Positions 1 through 63,798 of a DNA stretch of 64,000 nt are shown piece after piece (within the stretch, counting starts at the first letter, position 1; the number at the start of each line of letters is the position of its first letter). The stretch lies in the NCBI RefSeq assembly GCF_056746865.1, contig NZ_CM163382.1; one strand, written 5' to 3'. The position numbers and the translations under genes are program-made. The notes beneath the pieces were generated by a model, which worked only from the letters and a program-made list of their open reading frames with translations, made no database searches and had not been told where the DNA came from.

Positions 1-2292
1 TTGCCACGACCGAAACGTATCCGCGTGCCAACTCGTCGTGAATTGGCGTCTTACGGTATTAAGCTGCCCTCACAGCGTGCGGCGGAAGAAAAAGCCCGTG
101 AAGCCCAGCGCAATCAGTACGATTCTGGCGATCAGTACAACGATGATGAAATCGATGCGATGCAGCAGGATGAACTGGCACGTCAGTTCGCCCAGACACA
201 GCAGCAACGCTATGGCGAACAGTATCAACATGATGTGCCCGTAAACGCAGAAGATGCAGATGCTGCGGCAGAGGCTGAACTGGCTCGTCAGTTTGCGCAA
301 ACTCAACAACAACGTTATTCCGGCGAACAACCGGCTGGGGCGAATCCGTTCTCGCTGGATGATTTTGAATTTTCGCCAATGAAAGCGTTGCTGGATGATG
401 GTCCACACGAACCGTTGTTTACGCCAATTGTTGAACCTGTACAGCAGCCGCAACAACCGGTTGCACCGCAGCAGCAGTATCAGCAGCCACAACAGCCGGT
501 TGCGCCACAGCAGCAATATCAGCAGCCGCAACAGCCGGTTGCGCCGCAGCAGCAGTATCAGCAGCCACAACAGCAGGTTGCGCCGCAGCCACAATATCAG
601 CAGCCGCAACAACCGGTTGCGCCACAGCAGCAATATCAGCAGCCGCAACAGCCGGTTGCGCCGCAGCAGCAGTATCAACAGCTGCAACAACCGGTTGCAC
701 CGCAGCCGCAGTATCAGCAGCCACAACAGCCAGTTGCGCCACAGCCGCAGGATACCCTGCTTCATCCGCTGTTGATGCGCAATGGTGACAGCCGTCCGTT
801 GCATAAACCGACGACGCCGCTGCCTTCTCTGGATTTGCTGACGCCGCCGCCGAGCGAAGTGGAGCCGGTAGATACCTTTGCGCTTGAACAAATGGCGCGC
901 CTGGTGGAAGCGCGTCTGGCTGATTTCCGTATTAAAGCCGATGTCGTCAATTACTCTCCGGGGCCGGTTATCACTCGCTTTGAACTTAACCTGGCACCGG
1001 GCGTAAAAGCGGCGCGCATTTCTAACTTGTCACGGGACCTTGCCCGTTCACTTTCGACGGTGGCGGTGCGTGTCGTTGAAGTTATTCCTGGCAAACCCTA
1101 TGTAGGTCTGGAGTTACCGAATAAAAAACGACAAACCGTTTATCTGCGCGAAGTATTGGATAACGCCAAATTCCGCGATAATCCGTCGCCATTAACCGTG
1201 GTGCTGGGTAAAGATATCGCCGGTGAGCCGGTGGTTGCCGATCTGGCGAAAATGCCGCACTTGTTGGTTGCGGGGACTACCGGTTCCGGTAAGTCTGTCG
1301 GGGTGAACGCGATGATCCTGAGCATGCTTTATAAAGCACAGCCAGAAGATGTGCGTTTCATCATGATCGACCCGAAAATGCTGGAGCTTTCGGTTTATGA
1401 AGGCATTCCGCATCTGTTAACGGAAGTCGTTACCGACATGAAAGATGCTGCCAACGCTTTGCGCTGGTGCGTAAATGAAATGGAACGTCGTTATAAGCTG
1501 ATGTCCGCCCTAGGTGTGCGTAATCTGGCGGGTTATAACGAAAAAATTGCTGAAGCCGATCGCATGATGCGTCCGATTCCAGACCCGTACTGGAAGCCGG
1601 GTGACAGTATGGATGCCCAGCATCCGGTGCTGAAAAAAGAACCGTACATTGTGGTGTTGGTGGACGAATTTGCCGACCTGATGATGACGGTAGGTAAAAA
1701 AGTGGAAGAGCTTATAGCACGTCTGGCGCAAAAAGCCCGTGCCGCGGGTATCCACCTCGTACTGGCAACGCAGCGTCCATCGGTTGATGTTATTACTGGT
1801 CTGATTAAAGCGAATATTCCGACCCGTATCGCCTTTACCGTATCCAGTAAGATTGACTCACGTACCATTCTTGATCAGGCTGGCGCGGAATCACTGCTGG
1901 GTATGGGGGATATGCTTTACTCTGGGCCGAACTCCACGTTGCCGGTACGTGTTCATGGTGCTTTTGTTCGCGATCAGGAAGTTCATGCCGTGGTGCAGGA
2001 CTGGAAAGCGCGTGGTCGCCCACAGTATGTTGATGGCATCACCTCCGACAGTGAAAGCGAAGGTGGCGCGGGCGGTTTCGATGGCGCTGAAGAACTGGAT
2101 CCGTTGTTCGATCAGGCGGTGCAGTTTGTCACTGAAAAACGCAAAGCATCAATTTCTGGCGTACAGCGTCAGTTCCGCATTGGTTATAACCGTGCAGCGC
2201 GTATTATCGAACAGATGGAAGCGCAGGGGATTGTCAGCGAACAGGGGCACAACGGTAATCGTGAAGTGCTGGCCCCACCGCCGTTTGACTAA
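1..2292 (+). CDS. ftsK: DNA translocase FtsK, C-terminal ~763 codons (5' end lies upstream of the window)
   Basis: ORF open from base 1; PQ-rich linker repeats, Walker [10 protein letters not shown]-terminal gamma/winged-helix region; matches E. coli FtsK from memory. Confidence 0.95.
442..753 (+). repeat. In-frame tandem repeat, about 8 imperfect copies of a 39-bp unit encoding [13 protein letters not shown] (FtsK linker)
   Basis: Unit cagcagcc(a/g)caacagccggttgcgcc(a/g)cagcagcaatat recurs head-to-tail with point variants; this also generates the spurious overlapping ORFs 70..891(-), 395..775(+), 419..742(-). Confidence 0.9.
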
Positions 2293-4485: not shown

Positions 4486-5799
<1,314 letters not shown>

Positions 5800-6037: not shown

Positions 6038-8482
6038 ATGAAAACGAAAATCCCTGATGCGGTATTGGCTGCTGAGGTGAGTCGCCGTGGTTTGGTAAAA
6101 ACGACAGCGATCGGCGGCCTGGCAATGGCCAGCAGCGCATTAACATTACCTTTTAGTCGGATTGCGCACGCTGTCGATAGCGCCATTCCAACAAAATCAG
6201 ACGAAAAGGTTATCTGGAGCGCCTGTACAGTTAACTGTGGTAGTCGCTGCCCGCTACGTATGCACGTCGTGGACGGTGAAATCAAATATGTTGAAACGGA
6301 TAATACTGGCGATGACAACTATGACGGCCTGCACCAGGTGCGCGCCTGTCTGCGTGGTCGTTCCATGCGTCGCCGTGTCTACAATCCGGACCGCCTGAAA
6401 TATCCGATGAAACGAGTCGGGGCGCGCGGTGAAGGCAAATTCGAGCGCATTAGCTGGGAAGAAGCCTACGACATCATCGCGACCAATATGCAGCGCCTGA
6501 TCAAAGAGTACGGCAACGAATCCATCTATCTGAACTATGGCACCGGTACGCTGGGTGGCACCATGACCCGCTCCTGGCCGCCGGGAAATACCCTGGTCGC
6601 TCGCCTGATGAACTGCTGCGGCGGTTATCTGAACCATTACGGTGACTACTCTTCCGCGCAAATTGCGGAAGGTTTGAACTATACCTACGGCGGCTGGGCA
6701 GATGGTAACAGCCCGTCGGATATCGAAAACAGTAAACTGGTAGTGCTGTTTGGTAATAACCCTGGCGAAACGCGAATGAGTGGCGGTGGGGTGACTTACT
6801 ATCTTGAACAGGCGCGTCAGAAATCTAATGCTCGCATGATCATCATCGATCCGCGCTATACCGACACCGGAGCCGGGCGCGAAGATGAGTGGATCCCTAT
6901 TCGTCCGGGAACAGATGCCGCACTGGTTAACGGTCTGGCGTATGTCATGATCACCGAAAACCTGGTGGATCAGGCATTCCTCGATAAATATTGCGTTGGC
7001 TACGACGAGAAAACACTGCCAGCCAGTGCGCCGAAAAATGGTCACTATAAAGCTTATATTCTGGGTGAAGGGCCAGATGGCGTGGCTAAAACGCCGGAAT
7101 GGGCCTCGCAAATCACCGGTGTTCCGGCAGACAAAATCATCAAACTGGCTCGTGAAATCGGTAGTACCAAACCGGCGTTTATCAGCCAGGGATGGGGCCC
7201 GCAGCGTCACGCTAACGGTGAAATCGCAACCCGTGCTATCTCGATGCTGGCGATTCTGACCGGTAACGTTGGTATTAACGGGGGGAACAGCGGCGCGCGT
7301 GAAGGTTCATACAGCTTACCGTTTGTCCGTATGCCGACCCTCGAAAACCCGATCCAGACCAGCATTTCGATGTTTATGTGGACCGATGCCATTGAACGTG
7401 GCCCGGAAATGACGGCGCTGCGTGATGGTGTGCGCGGGAAAGATAAGCTGGATGTGCCGATCAAAATGATCTGGAACTATGCTGGTAACTGCCTGATTAA
7501 CCAGCATTCTGAAATCAACCGTACCCATGAAATCCTTCAGGATGATAAGAAGTGCGAGCTGATTGTGGTTATCGACTGCCACATGACCTCATCGGCGAAA
7601 TATGCTGACATCCTGCTGCCTGACTGCACCGCTTCCGAACAGATGGACTTTGCACTGGATGCATCCTGCGGGAATATGTCTTACGTGATTTTCAACGATC
7701 AGGTGATTAAACCGCGCTTTGAATGTAAGACCATCTATGAAATGACCAGCGAACTGGCAAAACGTCTTGGCGTTGAGCAACAGTTTACTGAAGGCCGTAC
7801 CCAGGAAGAGTGGATGCAGCATCTGTATGCCCAGTCGCGGGAAGCGATTCCTGAACTGCCAACGTTTGAAGAGTTCCGCAAGCAGGGGATCTTTAAAAAG
7901 CGCGACCCACAAGGGCATCACGTTGCTTATAAAGCCTTCCGTGAAGATCCGCAGGCAAATCCACTGACCACGCCATCGGGTAAAATTGAGATTTATTCGC
8001 AGGCGCTGGCTGACATTGCCGCTACCTGGGAATTGCCAGAAGGCGATGTGATCGATCCACTGCCGATCTACACGCCGGGCTTTGAAAGTTATCAGGATCC
8101 GCTGAACAAACAGTATCCGCTGCAGCTTACGGGTTTCCACTATAAATCTCGCGTTCACTCAACTTACGGCAACGTTGATGTGCTGAAAGCGGCTTGCCGT
8201 CAGGAAATGTGGATCAACCCGCTTGATGCCCAAAAACGCGGTATCAACAACGGCGATAAAGTCAGGATCTTTAACGATCGTGGTGAGGTTCATATTGAGG
8301 CGAAAGTGACGCCACGAATGATGCCGGGTGTGGTCGCACTGGGTGAAGGTGCCTGGTATGACCCGGATGCAAAACGTGTCGATAAGGGCGGTTGTATCAA
8401 CGTACTGACCACTCAACGTCCGTCTCCTCTCGCTAAGGGGAATCCGTCACATACAAACCTTGTTCAGGTTGAAAAGGTGTAA
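6038..8482 (+). CDS. dmsA: DMSO reductase catalytic subunit DmsA (molybdopterin, Tat-exported)
   Basis: 814 aa; twin-arginine signal SRRGLVK...AHA; N-terminal cysteine cluster C-x2-C-x3-C. Confidence 0.96.
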   Translation: MKTKIPDAVLAAEVSRRGLVKTTAIGGLAMASSALTLPFSRIAHAVDSAIPTKSDEKVIWSACTVNCGSRCPLRMHVVDGEIKYVETDNTGDDNYDGLHQVRACLRGRSMRRRVYNPDRLKYPMKRVGARGEGKFERISWEEAYDIIATNMQRLIKEYGNESIYLNYGTGTLGGTMTRSWPPGNTLVARLMNCCGGYLNHYGDYSSAQIAEGLNYTYGGWADGNSPSDIENSKLVVLFGNNPGETRMSGGGVTYYLEQARQKSNARMIIIDPRYTDTGAGREDEWIPIRPGTDAALVNGLAYVMITENLVDQAFLDKYCVGYDEKTLPASAPKNGHYKAYILGEGPDGVAKTPEWASQITGVPADKIIKLAREIGSTKPAFISQGWGPQRHANGEIATRAISMLAILTGNVGINGGNSGAREGSYSLPFVRMPTLENPIQTSISMFMWTDAIERGPEMTALRDGVRGKDKLDVPIKMIWNYAGNCLINQHSEINRTHEILQDDKKCELIVVIDCHMTSSAKYADILLPDCTASEQMDFALDASCGNMSYVIFNDQVIKPRFECKTIYEMTSELAKRLGVEQQFTEGRTQEEWMQHLYAQSREAIPELPTFEEFRKQGIFKKRDPQGHHVAYKAFREDPQANPLTTPSGKIEIYSQALADIAATWELPEGDVIDPLPIYTPGFESYQDPLNKQYPLQLTGFHYKSRVHSTYGNVDVLKAACRQEMWINPLDAQKRGINNGDKVRIFNDRGEVHIEAKVTPRMMPGVVALGEGAWYDPDAKRVDKGGCINVLTTQRPSPLAKGNPSHTNLVQVEKV

Positions 8483-8492
8483 GGAGTAACCG

Positions 8493-9110
8493 ATGACAAC
8501 CCAGTATGGATTTTTTATTGATTCCAGCCGTTGCACCGGTTGCAAAACCTGCGAGCTGGCCTGTAAAGACTATAAAGATCTGACGCCGGAAGTCAGCTTC
8601 CGCCGCATTTATGAATATGCTGGCGGTGACTGGCAGGAAGATAACGGTGTCTGGCATCAGAACGTGTTTGCCTACTATCTGTCGATTTCATGTAACCACT
8701 GCGAAGATCCGGCTTGTACTAAAGTCTGCCCGAGTGGTGCGATGCATAAACGTGAAGATGGTTTTGTTGTAGTCGATGAAGATGTGTGCATTGGCTGCCG
8801 CTACTGCCATATGGCTTGCCCGTATGGCGCACCGCAATATAACGAAACGAAAGGCCATATGACCAAATGCGATGGTTGTTATGACCGTGTTGCGGAGGGG
8901 AAAAAGCCGATCTGTGTTGAATCTTGCCCGCTGCGGGCGCTGGATTTCGGCCCTATCGACGAGCTGCGTAAAAAACATGGCGATCTGGCGGCCGTTGCGC
9001 CGTTGCCGCGAGCTCACTTTACCAAACCGAATATTGTGATCAAACCCAATGCCAACAGCCGCCCGACCGGGGATACCACTGGCTATCTGGCAAACCCGAA
9101 GGAGGTGTGA
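8493..9110 (+). CDS. dmsB: DMSO reductase Fe-S subunit DmsB
   Basis: 205 aa with four ferredoxin-type Cys clusters. Confidence 0.96.
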   Translation: MTTQYGFFIDSSRCTGCKTCELACKDYKDLTPEVSFRRIYEYAGGDWQEDNGVWHQNVFAYYLSISCNHCEDPACTKVCPSGAMHKREDGFVVVDEDVCIGCRYCHMACPYGAPQYNETKGHMTKCDGCYDRVAEGKKPICVESCPLRALDFGPIDELRKKHGDLAAVAPLPRAHFTKPNIVIKPNANSRPTGDTTGYLANPKEV

Positions 9111-9111
9111 G

Positions 9112-9975
9112 ATGGGAAGTGGATGGCATGAATGGCCGCTGATGATCTTCACGGTCTTCGGGCAATGTGTAGCGGGTGGTTTTATCGTTCTGGCTTTGGC
9201 GCTGCTCAAAGGCGACCTGCGAGCAGAAGCCCAGCAGCGTGTTATTGCCTGCATGTTTGGTTTATGGGTGCTGATGGGCATTGGCTTTATCGCCTCTATG
9301 CTTCATCTTGGTTCACCGATGCGCGCCTTTAACTCGCTCAACCGGGTAGGGGCTTCAGCACTCAGTAACGAAATCGCCAGCGGTTCGATCTTTTTTGCTG
9401 TTGGTGGCATCGGCTGGTTGCTGGCAATGCTGAAAAAGCTGTCACCGGCATTGCGTACGCTGTGGCTGATAGTGACGATGGTTCTTGGCGTCATCTTTGT
9501 CTGGATGATGGTGCGTGTGTATAACAGCATTCATACCGTTCCGACCTGGTACAGCATCTGGACGCCGATGGGCTTCTTCCTGACGATGTTTATGGGCGGC
9601 CCGTTACTGGGTTACCTGTTGCTGAGTCTGGCTGGCGTCGATGGCTGGGCGATGCGTCTGCTGCCAGCCATTTCTGTACTGGCACTGGTAGTGAGTGGTG
9701 TGATGTCAGTGATGCAGGGCGCAGAGCTGGCGACTATTCATAGTTCTGTGCAGCAGGCCGCAGCGCTGGTGCCGGACTATGGTGCGCTGATGTCCTGGCG
9801 GATCGTGCTTTTGGCTGTTGCCCTGTGTTTGTGGATTGCACCACAGCTAAAAGGTTATCAGCCTGCGGTTCCGCTACTATCCGTCTCATTCATTCTGCTT
9901 CTGGCAGGAGAATTAATCGGCCGCGGCGTATTCTATGGTTTGCATATGACCGTGGGGATGGCCGTCGCAAGCTAA
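9112..9975 (+). CDS. dmsC: DMSO reductase membrane anchor subunit DmsC
   Basis: 287 aa MGSGWHEWPLMIFTVFGQ...; ATG at 9112 preceded by AGGAGG; the ORF-track start at 9049 is an upstream extension overlapping dmsB. Confidence 0.93.
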   Translation: MGSGWHEWPLMIFTVFGQCVAGGFIVLALALLKGDLRAEAQQRVIACMFGLWVLMGIGFIASMLHLGSPMRAFNSLNRVGASALSNEIASGSIFFAVGGIGWLLAMLKKLSPALRTLWLIVTMVLGVIFVWMMVRVYNSIHTVPTWYSIWTPMGFFLTMFMGGPLLGYLLLSLAGVDGWAMRLLPAISVLALVVSGVMSVMQGAELATIHSSVQQAAALVPDYGALMSWRIVLLAVALCLWIAPQLKGYQPAVPLLSVSFILLLAGELIGRGVFYGLHMTVGMAVAS

Positions 9976-9983
9976 TCAGTAAC

Positions 9984-10014
9984 AACCGGGGTTTCGACCC
10001 CGGTTCTCTTTTAT
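9984..10014. terminator. Putative bidirectional terminator between convergent dmsC and ycaC
   Basis: Hairpin aaccgggg-tttcga-ccccggtt followed by a T-rich run. Confidence 0.55.
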
Positions 10015-10637
10015 TTCTGCTTCGTTAATGTGTCATAACTGGTCATCAAATTACGATAATCAGGAATGTGGTTAGAGAACAACGTCGCCAGTCCTTCAAT
10101 ATCATTACGCCAGTCACGGTGCAGCTCGCAAGCCACGCCGAACCATGTCATCAATTGCGCACCAGCTTGCGACATGCGATCCCACGCCGAATGCCGGGTA
10201 ATTTCATTAAAGGTCCCTGATGCATCAGTCACGACAAATACATCAAACCCCTCTTCAATGGCTGAAAGCGCCGGGAATGCCACGCAAACTTCGGTTACCA
10301 CACCGGCAATAATTAACTGTTTTTTACCTGTCGCTTTGACAGCTTTTACAAAATCTTCGTTATCCCAGGCGTTAATATTGCCCGGGCGAGCAATGTAAGG
10401 TGCATCGGGGAACTGTGCTTTCAGTTCTGGAACTAATGGGCCGTTAGGACCGGTTTCAAAACTGGTGGTAAGAATAGTAGGTAAGTTGAAATACTTAGCC
10501 AGGTCGCCCAGCGCCAGCACGTTATTTTTAAACTTATCGGGTTCGATATCCCGTACAAGGGAAAGTAAACCAGCCTGGTGATCAACAAGCAAAACGGCAG
10601 CATCATTTTTATCAAGACGAACATACGGTTTGGTCAT
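10011..10637 (-). CDS. ycaC: Isochorismatase-family hydrolase YcaC
   Basis: 208 aa; matches YcaC from memory. Confidence 0.92.
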   Translation of the reverse strand: MTKPYVRLDKNDAAVLLVDHQAGLLSLVRDIEPDKFKNNVLALGDLAKYFNLPTILTTSFETGPNGPLVPELKAQFPDAPYIARPGNINAWDNEDFVKAVKATGKKQLIIAGVVTEVCVAFPALSAIEEGFDVFVVTDASGTFNEITRHSAWDRMSQAGAQLMTWFGVACELHRDWRNDIEGLATLFSNHIPDYRNLMTSYDTLTKQK

Positions 10638-10951
10638 CCTCTTCTCCTTTCGAGAGTCAGTGGTACGTCTGAAATCGGTCAGACGCGATGCATTGCTCTG
10701 AAAGCATAGACGGGAAATATGAGTTTGCTGTGACCATGAAATTTTTCGACTGAACGAAGCGTATGAAATTTGTGTTAGATCAATAAAAACAATCAGATGA
10801 GATTAATCGTCTCTCCAGCATTAGCGTTATGAATGAGTAATATAAATCGATAATACCTCAGCTGCGATATGCGCGTATTTTCACCCATTGACAATGTTTT
10901 TGGCGGTGGCATGATGCGCATGAAATTTGAACTTCCTCACGGTTTTAATTC

Positions 10952-12100
10952 ATGTCCACGTATACCCGGCCTGTCATGCTTTTGCTGTCTGGCCTGCTTT
11001 TGTTGACTCTGGCGATCGCAGTGTTAAATACACTCGTGCCGCTTTGGCTCGCCCAGGAACATATGTCCACATGGCAGGTAGGCGTTGTCAGCTCATCCTA
11101 TTTTACCGGCAACCTGGTCGGTACATTGCTGACAGGGTATGTCATTAAGCGCATTGGCTTTAACCGCAGCTATTATCTGGCCTCCTTCATTTTTGCCGCT
11201 GGCTGTGCCGGCCTTGGCCTGATGATTGGATTCTGGAGCTGGTTGACTTGGCGTTTTGTCGCCGGCGTCGGCTGTGCCATGATTTGGGTGGTTGTTGAGA
11301 GCGCGCTGATGTGCAGTGGGACGTCATGTAACCGTGGGCGTTTGCTTGCTGCGTATATGATGGTTTATTACGTGGGAACGTTTTTAGGCCAGTTACTGGT
11401 CAGCAAAGTTTCAACCGAGCTGATGTCCGTATTGCCGTGGGTTACAGGTTTGACGTTGGCAGGGATCTTACCGCTGTTGTTTACGCGTGTGCTGAATCAG
11501 CAGGCTGAAAACCATGATTCGACGTCAATTACGTCAATGCTAAAACTCCGTCAGGCGCGGCTTGGCGTGAATGGCTGCATTATCTCAGGAATCGTTCTGG
11601 GATCTCTATATGGCCTGATGCCGCTGTTCCTCAATCACAAAGGGGTGAGCAATGCCAGCATTGGTTTCTGGATGGCGGTACTGGTCAGTGCGGGTATCCT
11701 TGGACAATGGCCGATTGGACGTCTGGCGGATAAGTTTGGTCGACTGCTGGTGTTGCGTGTTCAGGTCTTTGTCGTCATTCTCGGCAGTATCGCGATGCTT
11801 AGCCAGGCGGCGATGGCCCCAGCGTTATTCATCCTCGGTGCCGCTGGCTTTACGCTATATCCGGTGGCGATGGCCTGGGCTTGCGAGAAAGTTGAACATC
11901 ATCAACTGGTGGCGATGAACCAGGCCTTACTGTTGAGCTATACCGTGGGAAGTCTGCTTGGCCCGTCATTTACCGCTATGCTAATGCAGAATTTCTCCGA
12001 TAATTTATTGTTTATCATGATCGCCAGCGTATCGTTTATCTATTTGCTGATGCTGCTTCGCAACGCCGGTCATACGCCGAAACCCGTTGCTCACGTGTAA
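10952..12100 (+). CDS. ycaD: MFS transporter YcaD
   Basis: 382 aa, about 12 predicted transmembrane helices. Confidence 0.92.
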
Positions 12101-12309
12101 ATGAATTCAAGCAGAGTGTGAACTTACTGTTTCACACTCTGCTTTTTTGTTTCTTCTATCTGACTTGCTTTATTCCAAATTTTATTCGTTTAAAAATAAA
12201 ATGTGCAGCAGGTTATAATTTTGCATTTCGCTATTTCCGCACTTCTTATTTGCCGCGCATAATCCCTCGTTTTACAGATGCCCCTTTAATTTTGGCGAAG
12301 GATTTGTCT

Positions 12310-13740
12310 ATGGCTGGGAATGTTCAGGAAAAACAGCTGCGATGGTACAACATTGCGCTGATGTCTTTTATCACTGTCTGGGGTTTTGGCAACGTTGTTA
12401 ATAACTACGCCAACCAGGGGCTGGTGGTTGTTTTTTCATGGGTGTTTATCTTTGCGCTCTATTTCACACCTTATGCGCTAATTGTTGGTCAGTTAGGCTC
12501 GACCTTCAAAGATGGGAAGGGCGGGGTCAGTACCTGGATTAAACACACGATGGGACCCGGACTGGCTTACCTCGCCGCGTGGACCTACTGGGTAGTGCAT
12601 ATTCCCTATCTGGCACAAAAACCCCAGGCAATACTGATTGCGCTCGGTTGGGCGATGAAAGGCGACGGTTCGTTAATCAAAGAATATTCAGTCGTAGCGT
12701 TACAGGGGTTAACGCTGGTGCTGTTTATCTTCTTTATGTGGGTTGCTTCACGCGGTATGAAATCGCTGAAAATCGTCGGTTCTGTGGCAGGGATTGCGAT
12801 GTTTGTTATGTCGCTCCTGTATGTGGCGATGGCGGTAACCGCGCCTGCAATTACTGAAGTGCATATTGCGACCACAAACATTACCTGGGAAACGTTCATT
12901 CCTCATATCGACTTTACCTACATTACCACTATTTCAATGCTGGTTTTCGCGGTTGGCGGAGCAGAGAAGATTTCTCCTTACGTTAATCAAACGCGCAACC
13001 CAGGAAAAGAATTTCCAAAAGGGATGTTATGCCTGGCGGTGATGGTTGCGGTTTGTGCCATTCTGGGCTCACTGGCGATGGGGATGATGTTTGACTCGCG
13101 TAATATCCCGGATGACTTAATGACTAACGGTCAGTATTACGCCTTTCAGAAGCTGGGCGAGTATTACAACATGGGTAATACTTTAATGGTGATTTATGCC
13201 ATTGCGAATACCCTGGGACAAGTAGCTGCGCTGGTATTCTCGATTGATGCGCCGCTTAAAGTGTTATTAGGCGATGCTGACAGCAAATATATTCCAGCCA
13301 GTTTATGTCGTACCAACGCTTCTGGTACGCCCGTTAATGGCTATTTTCTGACCCTGGTGCTGGTGGCGATCCTGATAATGCTACCGACTCTCGGCATTGG
13401 TGATATGAACAATCTCTATAAATGGCTGTTGAATCTTAACTCGGTAGTGATGCCGCTGCGTTATTTATGGGTATTTGTTGCATTTATTGCAGTCGTTCGC
13501 CTGGCGCAGAAATATAAACCAGAATATGTCTTTATTCGTAATAAGCCTCTGGCAATGACCGTCGGGATTTGGTGTTTTGCCTTTACCGCCTTTGCCTGTT
13601 TGACGGGGATCTTCCCGAAAATGGAAGCCTTCACTGCAGAGTGGACCTTCCAGTTGGCGCTGAATGTTGCAACGCCGTTTGTGTTGGTAGGATTAGGACT
13701 GATATTCCCGCTGCTGGCGCGTAAAGCGAATGATAAATAA
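12310..13740 (+). CDS. ycaM: APC-family amino acid transporter YcaM
   Basis: 476 aa from MAGNVQEKQLRWYNIALMSF...; the ORF-track start at 12118 is an in-frame upstream extension. Confidence 0.85.
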   Translation: MAGNVQEKQLRWYNIALMSFITVWGFGNVVNNYANQGLVVVFSWVFIFALYFTPYALIVGQLGSTFKDGKGGVSTWIKHTMGPGLAYLAAWTYWVVHIPYLAQKPQAILIALGWAMKGDGSLIKEYSVVALQGLTLVLFIFFMWVASRGMKSLKIVGSVAGIAMFVMSLLYVAMAVTAPAITEVHIATTNITWETFIPHIDFTYITTISMLVFAVGGAEKISPYVNQTRNPGKEFPKGMLCLAVMVAVCAILGSLAMGMMFDSRNIPDDLMTNGQYYAFQKLGEYYNMGNTLMVIYAIANTLGQVAALVFSIDAPLKVLLGDADSKYIPASLCRTNASGTPVNGYFLTLVLVAILIMLPTLGIGDMNNLYKWLLNLNSVVMPLRYLWVFVAFIAVVRLAQKYKPEYVFIRNKPLAMTVGIWCFAFTAFACLTGIFPKMEAFTAEWTFQLALNVATPFVLVGLGLIFPLLARKANDK

Positions 13741-13906
13741 TTATTGTGGTCGGTGACGCTGACTCTGGCAGATCTGACCCGTTTTTACATAATCGAGAAA
13801 TGCGCGTAAGCCGCAGGACATATACTGGCGGTTTGGGTAATACATTTGGAAGCTGTGCTGTAAGGGCGTTAGAAATAGAGCTCTGAATTATTTATGCAGA
13901 GCGGAA

Positions 13907-13940
13907 TAAAAAAGCGGCAACTCAAAAAAGTTGCCGCTTT
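13907..13940 (-). terminator. Rho-independent terminator downstream of pflA
   Basis: Hairpin gcggcaac-tcaaaaaa-gttgccgc; on the minus strand the stem is followed by TTTTTTATT. Confidence 0.7.
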
Positions 13941-13949
13941 ACGGGGAAA

Positions 13950-14690
13950 TTAGAACATTACCTTATGACCGTACTGCTCAAGAATGCCTTTCACGCGTTC
14001 CATGGTCTCTTTCTTCGGTGGTTTAACACCATCAAGTTTGTATTCTTCACCCATCGCCACCCATTTGTGTTTGCCAAGTTCGTGGTAGGGGAGAAGCTCG
14101 ATTTTCTCAACGTTGCCCATATCACGGGTAAATTCACCGAGGCGATGCGCTGAATCGTCATCGTCAGACCAGCCTGGGACAACAACGTAGCGGATCCACA
14201 CCTTCACATTTTTGTTCGCCAGATATTTGGCGAACTCCAGCGTGCGGTGGTTGGAAACTCCAACCAGATTTTGGTGGATCTCGTCGTTCATCTGTTTGAG
14301 ATCGAGCATTACCAGGTCGGTTACTTCCAGCAGTTCATCAATCACCGGATCGTAACGACGAACAAAACCGTTGGTATCCAGACAGGTATGAATGCCTTCT
14401 TTTTTGCAGGCGCGGAACCAGTCACGAACAAACTCAGCTTGCAGGATTGCTTCACCGCCGGATGCGGTAACGCCGCCGCCGGAAGCGTTCATAAAGTGGC
14501 GATAGGTCACCACTTCCTTCATCAAATCTTCAACGGTAACTTCTTTACCGCCATGCGTGTCCCAGGTGTCGCGGTTATGACAATACAGGCAGCGCATCAG
14601 GCAGCCCTGGAAAAAGGTGATAAAGCGAATACCCGGGCCGTCTACGGTTCCACAGGATTCAAAGGAGTGAATGCGACCAATAACTGACAT
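13950..14690 (-). CDS. pflA: Pyruvate formate-lyase activating enzyme (radical SAM)
   Basis: 246 aa [23 protein letters not shown]...; CxxxCxxC motif; the ORF-track start at 14717 is an upstream extension. Confidence 0.95.
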
Positions 14691-47914: not shown

Positions 47915-47952
47915 TAAAAAAGCCCGCTTTTTAAGCGGGCTTCATTGTTTTT
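47915..47952. terminator. Bidirectional Rho-independent terminator between convergent gloC and aspC
   Basis: Hairpin agcccgc-tttttaa-gcgggct with T-runs on both strands. Confidence 0.65.
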
Positions 47953-54060: not shown

Positions 54061-56673
54061 ATGACTCAACAGCCACAAGCCAAATACCGTCACGATTATC
54101 GTGCGCCGGATTACCAGATTACTGATATTGACTTGACCTTTGACCTGGACGCGCAAAAGACGGTCGTTACCGCGGTCAGCCAGGCTGTCCGTCATGGTGC
54201 ATCAGATGCTCCGCTTCGTCTTGATGGCGAAGATCTTAAACTGGTTTCTGTTCATATTAATGATGAGCCGTGGACCGCCTGGAAAGAAGAAGAGGGCGCA
54301 CTGGTCATCAGTAATTTGCCGGAGCGTTTTACGCTTAAGATCGTTAATGAAATTAGCCCGGCGACGAATACCGCGCTGGAAGGGCTTTATCAGTCAGGCG
54401 ATGCGCTTTGCACTCAGTGTGAAGCCGAAGGTTTCCGCCATATTACGTATTATCTTGACCGCCCGGACGTACTGGCGCGTTTTACCACCAAAATTATTGC
54501 CGATAAAACCAAATATCCCTTCCTGCTTTCCAACGGTAACCGCGTTGCGCAAGGCGAACTGGAAAACGGACGTCACTGGGTACAGTGGCAGGACCCGTTC
54601 CCGAAACCGTGCTACCTGTTTGCGCTGGTTGCAGGCGACTTCGACGTGCTGCGCGACACCTTCACCACGCGTTCTGGTCGCGAAGTGGCGCTGGAGCTGT
54701 ACGTCGATCGCGGCAACCTCGACCGCGCGCCGTGGGCGATGACCTCGCTGAAAAACTCCATGAAATGGGATGAAGAACGCTTCGGCCTGGAGTATGACCT
54801 CGACATCTATATGATCGTCGCGGTGGATTTCTTCAATATGGGCGCAATGGAGAATAAAGGTCTGAATATCTTTAACTCCAAATATGTGCTGGCCCGTACC
54901 GACACCGCCACCGATAAAGATTACCTCGATATTGAGCGTGTTATCGGCCATGAATATTTCCATAACTGGACCGGTAACCGAGTGACCTGCCGCGACTGGT
55001 TCCAGCTCAGCCTGAAAGAAGGTTTAACCGTGTTCCGCGATCAGGAATTCAGCTCTGACCTTGGTTCCCGCGCGGTAAACCGTATCAACAACGTGCGCAC
55101 CATGCGCGGATTGCAGTTTGCGGAAGACGCCAGCCCGATGGCGCACCCGATCCGCCCGGATATGGTCATTGAGATGAACAACTTCTACACCCTGACCGTT
55201 TACGAGAAGGGCGCGGAAGTGATTCGCATGATCCACACCCTGCTGGGCGAAGAAAACTTCCAGAAAGGGATGCAGCTCTATTTCGAGCGCCATGATGGCA
55301 GCGCGGCAACCTGCGACGACTTTGTGCAGGCGATGGAAGATGCGTCGAATGTCGATCTCTCTCATTTCCGCCGTTGGTACAGCCAGTCCGGTACGCCGGT
55401 TGTGACCGTCAAAGACGACTATAATCCGGAAACTGAGCAGTACACCCTGACCATCAGCCAGCGTACGCCTGCTACGCCGGATCAGGCAGAAAAACAGCCG
55501 CTGCATATTCCGTTTGCCATCGAACTGTATGACAACGAAGGCAAAGTGATCCCGTTGCAAAAAGGCGGTCATCCGGTGAATTCGGTGCTGAACGTCACCC
55601 AGGCGGAACAGACCTTTGTCTTTGATAATGTCTACTTTCAGCCGGTGCCTGCGCTGCTGTGCGAATTCTCTGCGCCAGTGAAACTGGAATATAAGTGGAG
55701 CGATCAGCAACTGACCTTCCTGATGCGTCATGCGCGTAATGATTTCTCCCGCTGGGATGCGGCGCAAAGCCTGCTGGCAACCTACATCAAGCTGAACGTC
55801 GCGCGTCATCAGCAAGGTCAGCCGCTGTCTCTGCCGGTGCATGTGGCTGATGCTTTCCGCGCGGTACTGCTTGATGAGAAGATTGATCCGGCACTGGCGG
55901 CAGAAATCCTGACGCTGCCTTCCGTCAATGAAATGGCAGAACTGTTCGATATCATCGACCCGATTGCTATTGCTGAAGTACGCGAAGCACTCACTCGTAC
56001 TCTGGCGACTGAACTGGCGGATGAGCTACTGGCTATTTACAACGCGAATTACCAGAGCGAGTACCGTGTTGAGCATGAAGATATTGCAAAACGCACTCTG
56101 CGTAATGCCTGCCTGCGCTTCCTTGCTTTTGGTGAAACGCATCTGGCTGACGTGCTGGTGAGCAAGCAATACCATGAAGCAAACAATATGACCGATGCGC
56201 TGGCAGCGCTTTCTGCAGCGGTTGCTGCACAGCTGCCTTGCCGTGACGCGCTGATGCAGGAGTACGACGACAAGTGGCATCAGGATGGTCTGGTGATGGA
56301 TAAATGGTTTATCCTGCAAGCCACCAGCCCGGCGGCGAATGTGCTGGAGACGGTGCGTGGCCTGTTGCAGCATCGCTCATTTACCATGAGCAACCCGAAC
56401 CGTATTCGTTCGTTGATTGGTGCGTTTGCGGGCAGCAACCCGGCAGCGTTCCATGCCGAAGATGGCAGCGGTTACCAGTTCCTGGTGGAAATGCTTACCG
56501 ACCTCAACAGCCGTAACCCGCAGGTGGCTTCACGCCTGATTGAGCCGCTGATTCGCCTGAAACGTTACGATGCTAAACGTCAGGAGAAAATGCGCGCGGC
56601 GCTGGAGCAGTTGAAAGGGCTGGAAAATCTCTCTGGCGATCTGTACGAGAAGATAACTAAAGCACTGGCTTGA
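54061..56673 (+). CDS. pepN: Aminopeptidase N
   Basis: 870 aa; GAMEN and HEYFHNWTGN zinc motifs. Confidence 0.97.
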   Translation: MTQQPQAKYRHDYRAPDYQITDIDLTFDLDAQKTVVTAVSQAVRHGASDAPLRLDGEDLKLVSVHINDEPWTAWKEEEGALVISNLPERFTLKIVNEISPATNTALEGLYQSGDALCTQCEAEGFRHITYYLDRPDVLARFTTKIIADKTKYPFLLSNGNRVAQGELENGRHWVQWQDPFPKPCYLFALVAGDFDVLRDTFTTRSGREVALELYVDRGNLDRAPWAMTSLKNSMKWDEERFGLEYDLDIYMIVAVDFFNMGAMENKGLNIFNSKYVLARTDTATDKDYLDIERVIGHEYFHNWTGNRVTCRDWFQLSLKEGLTVFRDQEFSSDLGSRAVNRINNVRTMRGLQFAEDASPMAHPIRPDMVIEMNNFYTLTVYEKGAEVIRMIHTLLGEENFQKGMQLYFERHDGSAATCDDFVQAMEDASNVDLSHFRRWYSQSGTPVVTVKDDYNPETEQYTLTISQRTPATPDQAEKQPLHIPFAIELYDNEGKVIPLQKGGHPVNSVLNVTQAEQTFVFDNVYFQPVPALLCEFSAPVKLEYKWSDQQLTFLMRHARNDFSRWDAAQSLLATYIKLNVARHQQGQPLSLPVHVADAFRAVLLDEKIDPALAAEILTLPSVNEMAELFDIIDPIAIAEVREALTRTLATELADELLAIYNANYQSEYRVEHEDIAKRTLRNACLRFLAFGETHLADVLVSKQYHEANNMTDALAALSAAVAAQLPCRDALMQEYDDKWHQDGLVMDKWFILQATSPAANVLETVRGLLQHRSFTMSNPNRIRSLIGAFAGSNPAAFHAEDGSGYQFLVEMLTDLNSRNPQVASRLIEPLIRLKRYDAKRQEKMRAALEQLKGLENLSGDLYEKITKALA

Positions 56674-56690
56674 TACTTTTGAGCCAAAAT

Positions 56691-56709
56691 GCCTGATGCG
56701 ACGCTTGAC
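56691..56709. repeat. Left half of a palindromic unit (REP/PU) split by the IS insertion
   Basis: gcctgatgcgacgcttgac; joins with 58146..58163 to rebuild a full PU that differs at one base from the intact PU at 58236..58272. Confidence 0.8.
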
Positions 56710-57236
56710 TGAACTGCACCCCAAATGTTGGACATAATCTGACATCTGAAGGTGCAGTTTATGAAACATTCATTTGAAGTAAAACTTGCCGCTGTAAATC
56801 ATTACCTGGCTGGTCATGCAGGCATCATTTCTACGGCAAAACTCTTTCAACTTTCTCACACCAGCCTCTCACACTGGATTAATCTTTTTCTTCTTCACGG
56901 TCCTCGGGCACTGGATTGCAGACACAAGCGTAGCTATTCTCCTGAAGATAAACTTTGCGTGGTTCTTTATGCTCTCGGGCATTCTGAGTCTCTACCCCGG
57001 GTAGCTGCCCGGTTTAACATTCCCAGCCACAACACGGTTAAAAACTGGATAAAAGGCTACCGCAAATCTGGTAATGAGGCCTTTATCAGGCGCAGGAAGG
57101 AGAAAAGCATGACCCGTTCTGATGATACCCATGAAAACGAGGCAAACATGACGCCGGAAGAGATGAAGAATGAGCTGCGTTATCTTCGCGCAGAAAATGC
57201 ATATCTGAAAGCCATGCAGGAGCATCTCCTGGAAAA

Positions 57237-58312
<1,076 letters not shown>

Positions 58313-58314
58313 TA

Positions 58315-59082
58315 TTAACCATGACGCCGAATCGGTTGTTCAGAGTGCCCACGCTGCATCACCCGTTGCAACACTTCCGCTTCCAGCTCCGCTAATCGCA
58401 CCGACCCTAACCGGCGCGGACGGGGGATATCCACCGTCAAATCCAGACCAATTTTTCCCTCTTCAATTAATAACACCCGGTCCGCCATTGCTACCGCTTC
58501 GCTCACATCATGCGTCACCAACAGTACGGTAAAGCCGTGCTCCTGCCAAAGTGACACAATCAAATCCTGCATCTCGAGCCGAGTCAGGGCGTCCAGCGCC
58601 CCGAGCGGTTCATCAAGCAATAATAAACCTGGTCGATGAATCAACGCTCTTGCCAGCGCCACACGCTGTTTCTGCCCGCCAGAAAGTGCGGCAGGCCATT
58701 CCCGCGCGCGATTCTCCAGCCCTACCGCAGCCAGCGCCCGACGCGCGGCATCGCGCCACTGACCTTGAAGGCCTAGCCCAACGTTATCAATCACCGATTT
58801 CCACGGCAGCAGACGCGCATCCTGAAACATCATTCGCGTGTCTTCCTGAATCTGAGCCAGCGGTGTGGAACCCGCTAACACATCGCCAGCGGTTGGCGTT
58901 TCCAGACCTGCCAGCAGGCGCAGCAAGGTACTTTTGCCACCACCGCTGCGGCCCACCACCGCCACAAACTGACCTGCCGGAATATGTAAATCCAGTTGGT
59001 TCAGGACGATATTTTCTGCGTAATGTTTGCTTACTGCATTGAGCAACAATGGTGTGCCCTGGTTCAGACGAGCAGTATTCAT
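58315..59082 (-). CDS. ssuB: Aliphatic sulfonate ABC transporter ATP-binding protein
   Basis: 255 aa; Walker [10 protein letters not shown]; signature LSGGQKQR. Confidence 0.95.
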
Positions 59083-61027: not shown

Positions 61028-61983
61028 AATTGTTTTCCTTCCAGTTGAGTGGGCTGCCAGATACGCTGGCGAATATCGACTTTTTTCGGCATCAGACGGT
61101 TTTCATAAAACAGATCTGCCGTTTGCTGCTGTAAGGCGGCAACCTCGGCGTTAACCGGTTTGATGGTGGTAGGGGGGCGATGATCTAAATAAGAGGCAAT
61201 CACCGGCGTTGGTAAGCCCATCGTTTTTGCCAGTAAAGCGATGCTTTGCTCGCGCTGGCTGCGGGTTAACGCATCGGCCTCACTAAAGGTTGCCAGTACG
61301 CCCTGAATAAAAGCGCCGTTTTTTTCTGCATACGGACGGGCAGCCAGATAAAACGATCCGGTTTGATTGAGATCGGTACCGTCTTTTAGCACCCGCACGC
61401 CGCCCTGTAATAATGCAGCGGAGTAGTAGGGATCCCAGATAGCCCATGCGTCGACGTTACCTTGCTGGAACGCGGCGCGGGCATCGGCAGGCGTCAGGTA
61501 AGTGGGCTGGATATCCGTGAATTTAAGCCCGGCCTGGCGTAGTGCGCGTAGTAAAAGATTGTGCGAGCTGGAACCTTTCTGAAAGGCAACTTTGTGACCT
61601 TTAAGATCGGCTACGGTTTTGATCGGGCTGTTTTCTGGCACCAGAATCACTTCGGCTTTGGGCTTCGGCGGCTCGACGCCCACGTACACCAAATCAGCCC
61701 CGGCAGCCTGGGCAAAGATTGGCGGAATATCTCCGGTACTGCCGAGATCAATACTGCCAACGTTTAACGCCTCCAGCATCTGTGGGCCAGCGGGGAACTC
61801 CACCCAGGAGATTTTGGTTTGCGGATAGCGTTTTTCCAGTAACTGGTGGCTTTTTGCCAGCACCATACCAATACTGCCTTTCTGATAGCCTATACGTAAC
61901 GCTTCAGGAGAGGATTCTGCAGCAACCGCAATCGTAGAGACGCTAAGTAATCCCGCCAGCGCCAGTTGAATGATGTTACGCAT
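61024..61983 (-). CDS. ssuA: Aliphatic sulfonate ABC transporter periplasmic binding protein
   Basis: 319 aa from [21 protein letters not shown]...; the ORF-track start at 62118 is an upstream extension into ssuE. Confidence 0.93.
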
Positions 61984-62551
61984 GGGCATTACCTCGCAGA
62001 GACAGAAGATCGGGAACCTGAATATCGCGGCGGTGCAGCGCCTGCCAGAAAGTTTCCAGCGCGGTATCAAGACGGGTTTGCAGATTTGGCGTGAACTGCG
62101 GCTTGTGGTGGTAATCAATCACCTGTGAGTCATCGGCAAACACGCCGTGCAGGATCTCCTGGGCTTTCAGCGCACTTAAAACTGGCTTAAGGGCATAATC
62201 GACCGCCAGCAGATGGGCCACCGTACCGCCCGTCGCCAGCGGTAGCACCACTTTGCCTTGCAACGCACGTTCTGGCAGTAGGTCGAGCAGGGTTTTCAGC
62301 GCACCGGAATAGGCGGCTTTATACACAGGCGTGGCGACAATCAGCCCATCGGCCTGTTGCAGCTGTTCGGTGAAGGTTTTGAGTGCCGGACTATCGAAAC
62401 GAGCATAAAGTAGATCTTCCGGGGCGAAGTTTTGCAGATTCCAGTGATAAACCTCTACATCCAGGCCATTTAGTTTTTCCCGCGCATATTCCAGCAAGGA
62501 GCTGGAACGAGAAGGAAAGCGAGGACTACCCGCCAGGGTGATGACACGCAT
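61976..62551 (-). CDS. ssuE: NADPH-dependent FMN reductase
   Basis: 191 aa MRVITLAGSPRFPSRSSSLLEYAREKLNGL... Confidence 0.95.
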   Translation of the reverse strand: MRVITLAGSPRFPSRSSSLLEYAREKLNGLDVEVYHWNLQNFAPEDLLYARFDSPALKTFTEQLQQADGLIVATPVYKAAYSGALKTLLDLLPERALQGKVVLPLATGGTVAHLLAVDYALKPVLSALKAQEILHGVFADDSQVIDYHHKPQFTPNLQTRLDTALETFWQALHRRDIQVPDLLSLRGNAHA

Positions 62552-62686
62552 ACTCTCTCCTTATAACCAATTGTTCTTGTTTTGTTAACATTGATAACAA
62601 TTCGGTCAGTCTGACAGAGGGCGTCCGCGAGTCGAAATGATTTATCTGAGGAAGAAAAGCCAAAAAAAGCATAAAAAAAGCGCAAT

Positions 62687-62702: not shown

Positions 62703-62787
62703 TTTATTGCCACAGGTCAATTCCCTTTTGGTCCGAACTCGCACATAATACGCCCCCGGTTTGCACACCGGGAATCCAGGAGAGTTC

Positions 62788-63798
62788 ATGTACTACCCCT
62801 TCGTTCGTAAAGCCCTTTTCCAGCTCGATCCAGAGCGCGCTCATGAGTTTACTTTTCAGCAATTACGCCGTATTACAGGAACGCCGTTTGAAGCACTGGT
62901 GCGGCAGAAAGTGCCTGCGAAACCTGTTAACTGCATGGGCCTGACGTTTAAAAATCCGCTTGGTCTGGCAGCCGGTCTTGATAAAGACGGGGAGTGCATT
63001 GACGCGTTAGGCGCGATGGGATTTGGATCGATCGAGATCGGTACCGTCACGCCACGTCCACAGCCAGGTAATGACAAGCCGCGTCTCTTTCGTCTGGTAG
63101 ATGCCGAAGGTTTGATCAACCGTATGGGCTTTAATAATCTTGGCGTTGATAACCTCGTAGAGAACGTAAAAAAAGCCCATTATGATGGCGTCCTGGGTAT
63201 TAACATCGGCAAAAATAAAGATACGCCGGTGGAGCAGGGTAAAGATGACTATCTGATTTGTATGGAAAAAATCTATGCTTATGCGGGATATATCGCCATC
63301 AATATTTCATCGCCGAATACACCGGGATTACGTACTCTGCAATATGGCGAAGCGCTGGATGATCTCTTAACCGCGATTAAAAATAAGCAAAATGATTTGC
63401 AAGCGATGCACCATAAATATGTGCCGATCGCAGTGAAGATCGCGCCGGATCTTTCTGAAGAAGAATTGATCCAGGTTGCCGATAGTTTAGTTCGCCATAA
63501 TATTGATGGCGTTATTGCAACCAATACCACGCTCGATCGTTCTCTGGTTCAGGGAATGAAAAATTGTGATCAAACCGGTGGCTTAAGTGGTCGTCCGCTT
63601 CAGTTAAAAAGCACCGAAATTATTCGCCGTTTATCACAGGAATTAAATGGTCGCTTACCGATCATCGGTGTTGGCGGCATCGACTCGGTTATCGCTGCGC
63701 GTGAAAAGATTGCTGCGGGGGCCTCACTGGTGCAAATTTATTCTGGTTTTATTTTTAAAGGTCCGCCGCTGATTAAAGAAATCGTTACCCATATCTAA
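62788..63798 (+). CDS. pyrD: Dihydroorotate dehydrogenase (quinone)
   Basis: 336 aa from [29 protein letters not shown]...; the ORF-track start at 62761 is an upstream extension. Confidence 0.96.

Follow-up and report, generated by a model that had tools for sequence, protein, structure and literature searches.

The 64,000-nucleotide stretch of contig NZ_CM163382.1 (NCBI RefSeq assembly GCF_056746865.1) analysed in this work, hereafter the window, very probably carries a deletion allele of a small accessory cassette, ycaN-ycaK, in an ST69-like E. coli, the two genes having been lost through a 1,476-bp deletion that left stubs behind. The gene order in the window is ycaC(-), ycaD(+), ycaM(+), pflA(-), pflB(-) and focA(-), and a spacer of only 209 bp (13741-13949) separates the stop codons of ycaM (which ends at 13740) and pflA (on the minus strand, ending at 13950). 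The initial annotation of this DNA, made from the sequence alone, had pointed to this adjacency and spacing and to the lack of ycaN and ycaK relative to K-12; we confirm the coordinates, and alignment and tblastn agree that the two genes are missing. The features of the locus are listed in Table 1.

Table 1. Features of the ycaM-pflA slot in the window (positions in the 64,000-nucleotide stretch).
Feature	Position	Strand	Description	Evidence
ycaM	12310..13740	+	APC-family permease, intact; left anchor of the variable slot	99.8% amino acid identity to K-12 YcaM over 476 aa
ycaN 3' relic	13741..13853	-	Pseudogene stub (stop, last 36 codons and 2 nt)	Aligns to L001 3142-3254
28-codon ORF	13800..13886	+	Open by chance, on the strand opposite the ycaN relic	No match of its translation to YcaN or YcaK
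Direct repeat, retained copy	13843..13852	.	CATTTGGAAG, one copy of a 10-bp imperfect direct repeat, followed by post-repeat ycaK sequence	
Deletion junction, variant J1	13853..13854	.	ycaN 3' similarity ends at 13853; ycaK end from 13854 onward	
ycaK remnant	13854..13893	+	Diverged remnant: last ~2 codons and stop of ycaK with its 3' spacer	Multi-species alignment
pflA terminator	13911..13940	-	Intrinsic terminator hairpin; marks the right boundary of the slot, conserved across the three E. coli forms	Terminator scan and fold
pflA	13950..14690	-	Pyruvate formate-lyase 1 activating enzyme, intact; right anchor	NCBIfam NF008356, 524.5 bits

Gene identities were assigned with NCBIfam models and tblastn. 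PflA scores 524 bits against an equivalog cutoff of 375 and is 100% identical in amino acid sequence to its K-12 counterpart, and the YcaD and YcaC of the window also match those of K-12. The profile matches of YcaM are weak and of the GadC/YjeM family; the gene is annotated by RefSeq at the same coordinates in O157:H7 and ST69. Over 5,651 bp the window is 99.98% identical to the chromosome of an O15:H18 ST69 strain, and its source, judged by this similarity, is an ST69-like E. coli lineage.

In the K-12-type chromosome (O16:H48, locus L001) the annotated order is ycaM(+), ycaN(-), ycaK(+), pflA(-), with the stop of ycaN abutting that of ycaM. The cassette between ycaM and pflA consists of ycaN, coding for a LysR-type regulator on the minus strand, and the divergent ycaK, coding for a predicted flavodoxin-fold NAD(P)H oxidoreductase. 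K-12 YcaN has an HTH_1 domain at residues 7-63 and a LysR substrate-binding domain at 91-290, a Flavodoxin_2 domain is found in YcaK, and the divergent genes are separated by a 99-bp spacer. Window positions 13600-13853 align with L001 3001-3254 and positions 13894-14000 with L001 4766-4872, both at 97% identity, and between these two blocks 40 bp of the window stand in place of 1,511 bp of K-12. The ycaM-pflA interval of the K-12 type is therefore ~1.68 kb and not 209 bp, which leaves intact the contrast with MG1655 drawn in the initial annotation. The ~2-kb deletion proposed there holds as a deletion, given the stubs, but not in its size: the deletion measures 1,476 bp and the net length difference is 1,471 bp, the remaining 5 bp being a spacer indel.

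When YcaN was searched by tblastn against the 64-kb window, only its residues 267-302 were recovered, and YcaK gave no match anywhere in the window (E <= 1e-3). The HTH_1 DNA-binding domain of YcaN is gone, its substrate-binding domain is incomplete with only the last ~24 residues left, and the flavodoxin-like fold domain of YcaK is absent, the stop-proximal bases alone being recognisable through multi-species alignment. Removed with the deletion were codons 1 to ~266 of ycaN, all but the very end of ycaK, and the 99-bp promoter region between the divergent genes.

What remains of ycaN lies at the orthologous position and abuts the ycaM stop as it does in K-12, with 113 bp of homology at ~96.5% DNA identity. 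Its translation, FQMYYPNRQYMSCGLRAFLDYVKTGQICQSQRHRPQ*, corresponds to YcaN residues 267-302 with 35 of 36 positions identical and one substitution. In O157:H7 and ST69, RefSeq/PGAP already marks 111 bp of this stub as a pseudogene 'missing N-terminus'; some genomes have it labelled as a LysR or LysR-family fragment.

The end of ycaK was recognised indirectly, since neither megablast nor blastn found a match between window positions 13854-13893 and the K-12 segment. A search of species-representative genomes with YcaM yielded four non-K-12-type Escherichia (Escherichia sp. MOD1-EC7003, 'E. coli' SCPM-O-B-8794, Escherichia sp. E1V33 and E. albertii NBRC 107761), with whose spacers we aligned that of the window. 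The 40-bp segment has homologous sequence in all four, among them E. albertii (31/41 identical) and the loci L008 and L009, and through these other Escherichia it aligns to K-12 TGCACTATAAGATGTGTTAAAAACG..., that is, the last two ycaK codons, the stop and the 3' spacer. A reading of these 40 bp as novel 'filler' DNA was dropped in view of this multi-species alignment.

Because stubs of both genes are left, the event in this lineage was a deletion. It is extremely improbable that the window represents the ancestral state and that K-12 gained ycaN-ycaK by a two-gene insertion. Such an insertion would agree with the direct adjacency of ycaM and pflA, with neither ycaN nor ycaK, in Citrobacter, Salmonella arizonae and diarizonae, Kluyvera, Yokenella and Pluralibacter, and with the patchy occurrence of YcaN relatives outside E. 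coli (Pseudocitrobacter, Budviciaceae, Hafnia, Shimwellia and Serratia), but the in-frame remnants of both genes in the window cannot stem from insertion into an empty site, and in Pseudocitrobacter the pair occupies this slot in the same order and orientation. An artefact of assembly or sequencing can be dismissed, as 1,023 independent complete genomes share the identical junction.

These genomes come from a survey of 5,426 complete E. coli genomes, which found the locus to be polymorphic, the distribution across phylogroups having been a question raised by the initial annotation. The full ycaN-ycaK segment (form A) is present in 3,318 genomes, including K-12, O104:H4 and O121; the exact junction of the window (form B) in 1,023, including several O157:H7 genomes and ST69; and a third arrangement (form C), with ycaD directly beside pflA and neither ycaM nor stubs, in 1,047, including the type strain ATCC 11775. 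The ~38 remaining genomes include IS-disrupted variants. Any match to the ycaN-ycaK segment at the megablast level was obtained in just 3,341 genomes, and therefore the genomes with deletion forms hold no copy elsewhere; the 2,085 genomes without a megablast match anywhere are consistent in number with the two deletion forms summed, and the loss first proposed is upheld on this point too. The junction of the window is ordinary strain-to-strain variation, found in about one fifth of sequenced E. coli.

No intact allele fell below 98.4% identity to K-12, and none was found from a D or E background. A divergent E. coli background (ECOD1) keeps the intact pair, which fits an intact form that would be ancestral within E. 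coli. A direct comparison of the K-12-type chromosome with O157:H7 MB41-1 shows the segment present in the former and absent at the same backbone site in the latter. Form C resembles the allele of the window in its slot, in its right boundary at the pflA terminator and in being equally common, but differs in that ycaM is lost too and the stubs are absent; since ycaM is present in Citrobacter, Salmonella and Kluyvera, form C is a deletion and not an ancestral absence. At its junction (L003 4002-4097) an 8-bp joint, CTGTGCAC, connects the hairpin of the ycaD terminator with the pflA terminator.

The slot has also been struck repeatedly by IS elements, as seen in L005 (strain CUPS04), H71 (strain EC96) and H1 (strain B1.H1.18). 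The cases comprise an IS1-associated deletion that truncates ycaM and leaves a ycaK 3' fragment only, two IS1 copies inside ycaN, and an IS5 in the form-B spacer of the closest relative of the window. In another genome (L006, strain 1094-like, NZ_LT883142.1) the flanks equal those of K-12, with 0 mismatches in 887 bp of ycaM and 741 bp of pflA, while the ycaN-ycaK segment is only 98.7% identical, a local recombination mosaic. In E. coli strain E69 (L024, CP089930.1, 7429-13428) the context of ycaM differs: the gene, whose 3' end reaches only 82% identity, precedes a hairpin and then CHASE9-EAL and GAPES2-GGDEF genes, with no pflA within 6 kb.

On the K-12 coordinate scale, ycaN is retained in the window up to L001 3254, and the sequence picks up again at ~4731. 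Both breakpoints lie at a direct repeat in K-12, GATCTGGAAG at L001 3244-3253 and GATATGGTAG at 4720-4729, whose copies are identical at 8 of 10 positions and lie 1,476 bp apart; a targeted scan, confined to the two breakpoint regions, reported no other repeat. One copy is retained at the junction, and the repeat spacing equals the length of the deletion. Deletions between short direct repeats are attributed to replication slippage or illegitimate recombination, classical examples being the lacI deletions studied in E. coli. The ycaN-ycaK loss resembles them in having a 10-bp repeat at both K-12 breakpoints, a single retained copy and a length that matches the spacing, but differs in that the repeat is imperfect and is read from the present-day K-12 allele, not from the true parent allele. 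Misalignment between the two repeats, by slippage during replication or by illegitimate recombination, with one copy kept, would be the most likely mechanism, for which the position and spacing of the repeats are suggestive but not proof.

Three junction variants occur across Escherichia within 15-50 bp of each other. Variant J1 is shared by the window, O157:H7, ST69 and E. albertii; J2 is found in L008 and L009; and J3, in L007, keeps ~40 bp more of ycaN and is joined at a TAA microhomology. Such clustering could reflect one older event followed by erosion, instead of a repeat-mediated event.

The sequence immediately around the junction bears on the age of the deletion. The junction-proximal 57 bp (13837-13893) are only ~60% identical to K-12, as opposed to 97-99% in the flanks, and are closest to E. 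albertii; taken at face value, this divergence does not fit a recent deletion from a K-12-like allele. The relic core is 88% and the 40-bp remnant 76% identical to E. albertii, where the four-fold-site divergence of the flanking genes is 0.30-0.53, and this similarity, over very little sequence (~57 bp), hints at an allele that may be old or exchanged. The deletion allele could predate E. coli or have moved between Escherichia species through homologous recombination, with form B in phylogroups D and E being introgressed or trans-species; we regard this as a possible but rather unlikely history. It would account for the J1 junction that E. albertii has in common with the window, for the identity of relic core and remnant to that species above neutral expectation, for a K-12 ycaK end and spacer that are closer to L008, another species, than to the window, and for the presence of stubs only in all four non-K-12-type Escherichia retrieved. 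However, a repeat-guided deletion can recur at the same junction, and its sharing may therefore reflect homoplasy; the relic tail (13741-13785) matches K-12 exactly and E. albertii at only 55%; and the informative segment spans only ~57 bp.

Tests for constraint on the ycaN stub beyond neutral expectation gave mixed results. Its identity is 0.78 to L008 and 0.65 to L009, where ~0.80 and ~0.70 were expected, which is approximately neutral; it is anomalously similar to E. albertii, and this excess similarity was not counted as evidence of function. The plus-strand 28-codon ORF, regarded in the initial annotation as a possible relic, does exist as an open frame, but it runs antisense to the ycaN stub. 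As a remnant of YcaN or YcaK it was rejected, being on the wrong strand, in the wrong frame and not conserved, and its translation matched neither protein. Its start codon is missing in L008, L009 and E. albertii (L010), and premature stops interrupt it in L007, L008 and L009.

We consider it very improbable that the stub has been kept for a function, be it as an element of the ycaM 3'UTR, a small RNA or a small protein such as the one that the 28-codon ORF would encode. Every Escherichia deletion variant does keep at least 94 bp of the ycaN 3' end beside ycaM, the block around TTTTACATAATCGAGAAA...GGACATATACTGGCGGTTTGGGTAATA is fairly well conserved, and ycaM-ycaN is listed in K-12 as a convergent pair with overlapping transcripts (PMC12288877). 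Against this stand the approximately neutral divergence from L008 and L009, the lack of any Rfam match below E = 0.1, the lack of conservation of the plus-strand ORF and the 1,047 form-C genomes that do without the stub.

The strong hairpin terminator noted earlier in the spacer is borne out, its U-run lying on the minus strand and hence serving pflA. On this strand a 13-bp stem is followed by the U-run UUUUUUAUU, with a folding energy of -20.3 kcal/mol (z = -5.5 versus shuffles). The same hairpin on the plus strand reaches -19 kcal/mol with no U-run after it, and was not called as a ycaM terminator. The hairpin is 97% conserved in four of the five other aligned sequences and 80% in L009, and it is present both in the K-12 form and in the form without ycaM. 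A search of the spacer for structured RNA gave only sub-threshold chance matches in Rfam (E >= 0.12), far under the gathering scores.

A wider comparison bears on the deeper history of the slot. Pseudocitrobacter corydidari carries an intact pair, with a YcaN 79% identical to that of E. coli, and lacks ycaM. The genera without the cassette and the patchy occurrence of the other close YcaN relatives make an insertion of the cassette at a deeper level quite plausible. The initial annotation had offered a deletion or an ancestral insertion in K-12 as alternatives; the first stands for this lineage, but the choice itself is a false one, because the cassette is absent in Citrobacter, Salmonella and Kluyvera, sits in the same slot in Pseudocitrobacter and was lost several times within Escherichia. 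The simplest reading is that ycaN-ycaK would be an old accessory cassette at a variable slot, lost repeatedly.

The ycaM-pflA slot is a recurrent insertion site across genera. In Citrobacter and Kluyvera some slots (L012, L014, L034 and L043, ~7400-12500) contain a ~5-kb operon with PTS EIIC-GAT, split-transketolase and RpiR genes, in which short ORFs beside EIIC-GAT are putative EIIB and EIIA genes; others (L017, L022 and L035, ~7420-8360) encode a ~264-aa protein with a signal peptide, presumably secreted, that has no Pfam match. The Pseudocitrobacter corydidari locus (L049, CP087880.1) reads ycaD, ycaN-like, ycaK-like, a choloylglycine-hydrolase-family gene, a second LysR gene and pflA, without ycaM or ycaC, and its ycaN-like CDS overlaps the 3' end of ycaD.

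A more far-reaching idea is that the slot is a long-lived polymorphism whose alleles coexist across, or are exchanged between, Escherichia species, and that, given the influence of YcaN on its neighbours ycaC, ycaD and focA and on formate use in K-12 (PMC9068703), ycaN-null alleles (in phylogroups D and E and in ATCC 11775-like strains) could be a selected rewiring around the focA-pflB fermentation locus and not the product of neutral decay; we hold this to be improbable.

Strains with the deletion allele, the window and other form-B strains alike, are by inference from their sequence natural ycaN/ycaK double nulls. What is left over would be inert, namely a promoterless 36-codon ycaN stub, a few diverged bases of the ycaK end and an untouched pflA terminator. 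In K-12 BW25113, deletion of ycaN lowers ycaC, raises ycaD and focA and gives a negative formate-utilisation phenotype, and YcaN ChIP-exo sites were reported at ycaC and ycaD, the role of YcaN still being listed as unknown (PMC9068703). The deleted unit has the same architecture of a LysR gene with a divergent neighbour as K-12 ycaN-ycaK, for which YcaN was studied (PMC9068703), and the pairing recurs in Pseudocitrobacter; unlike the K-12 pair, what survives in the window is 36 codons of the regulator with a few bases of its target gene, too little for any function. Results obtained in K-12 for YcaN and YcaK (ycaC, ycaD, focA and formate; PMC9068703) are not transferable to the ~39% of sequenced E. 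coli that, like O157:H7, ST69 and the type strain, are natural nulls. The convergent overlapping-transcript arrangement of ycaM-ycaN described in K-12 (PMC12288877) is likewise gone in the window, where transcription of ycaM would no longer converge on ycaN but continue across the stub in the direction of the pflA hairpin.

Within the library covered, our literature search found the YcaN regulon study and the excludon list only, and no paper on a ycaN-ycaK polymorphism. The allele is a common one, already annotated as a pseudogene fragment, and thus of low novelty, its cassette being in decay. The 2001 genome comparisons of EDL933 and Sakai reportedly describe K-12-specific segments relative to O157:H7 as 'K-islands', and the absence of ycaN-ycaK from O157:H7 belongs to this class of segments known since then. 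Like K-islands, the cassette is small, consists of y-genes of unknown role, and is present in K-12 and absent at the same position of the O157:H7 backbone; unlike a K-island understood as a gain in K-12, its absence here is a secondary deletion with stubs. The locus makes a clean teaching case of a dispensable two-gene cassette that was lost repeatedly, through three junctions, a larger deletion and events mediated by IS1. Forms A, B and C could be used as a simple marker of lineage, and current understanding is not overturned.

Elsewhere, the window differs from K-12 at several other places. Some 1.66 kb at 56676-58338, between pepN (54061-56673) and ssuB (58315-59082), are absent from K-12; they contain two ORFs (56752-57282 and 57387-58109), the second of which matches an IS3-family transposase model at 300 bits (cutoff 160), and correspond to an IS3-family insertion sequence with the usual orfA/orfB split. 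Further along, ssuE (61976-62551, minus strand) is followed directly by pyrD (62761-63798). In the K-12-type record elfA, elfD and elfC stand beside ssuE, and similarity to the window ends at 62613, ~60 bp past the ssuE start. In K-12 the ssuE-pyrD interval is occupied by the elf/ycb fimbrial operon, which appears to be absent from the window; this would be a larger presence/absence difference of the same kind as that of ycaN-ycaK. At ~47921-47931, K-12 has ~160 bp extra between aspC and gloC, which may be a repetitive extragenic element. Finally, the ftsK portion at window positions 1-746 has ~78 bp more of repetitive linker than K-12, judging from overlapping blast pieces, a difference in tandem-repeat length.
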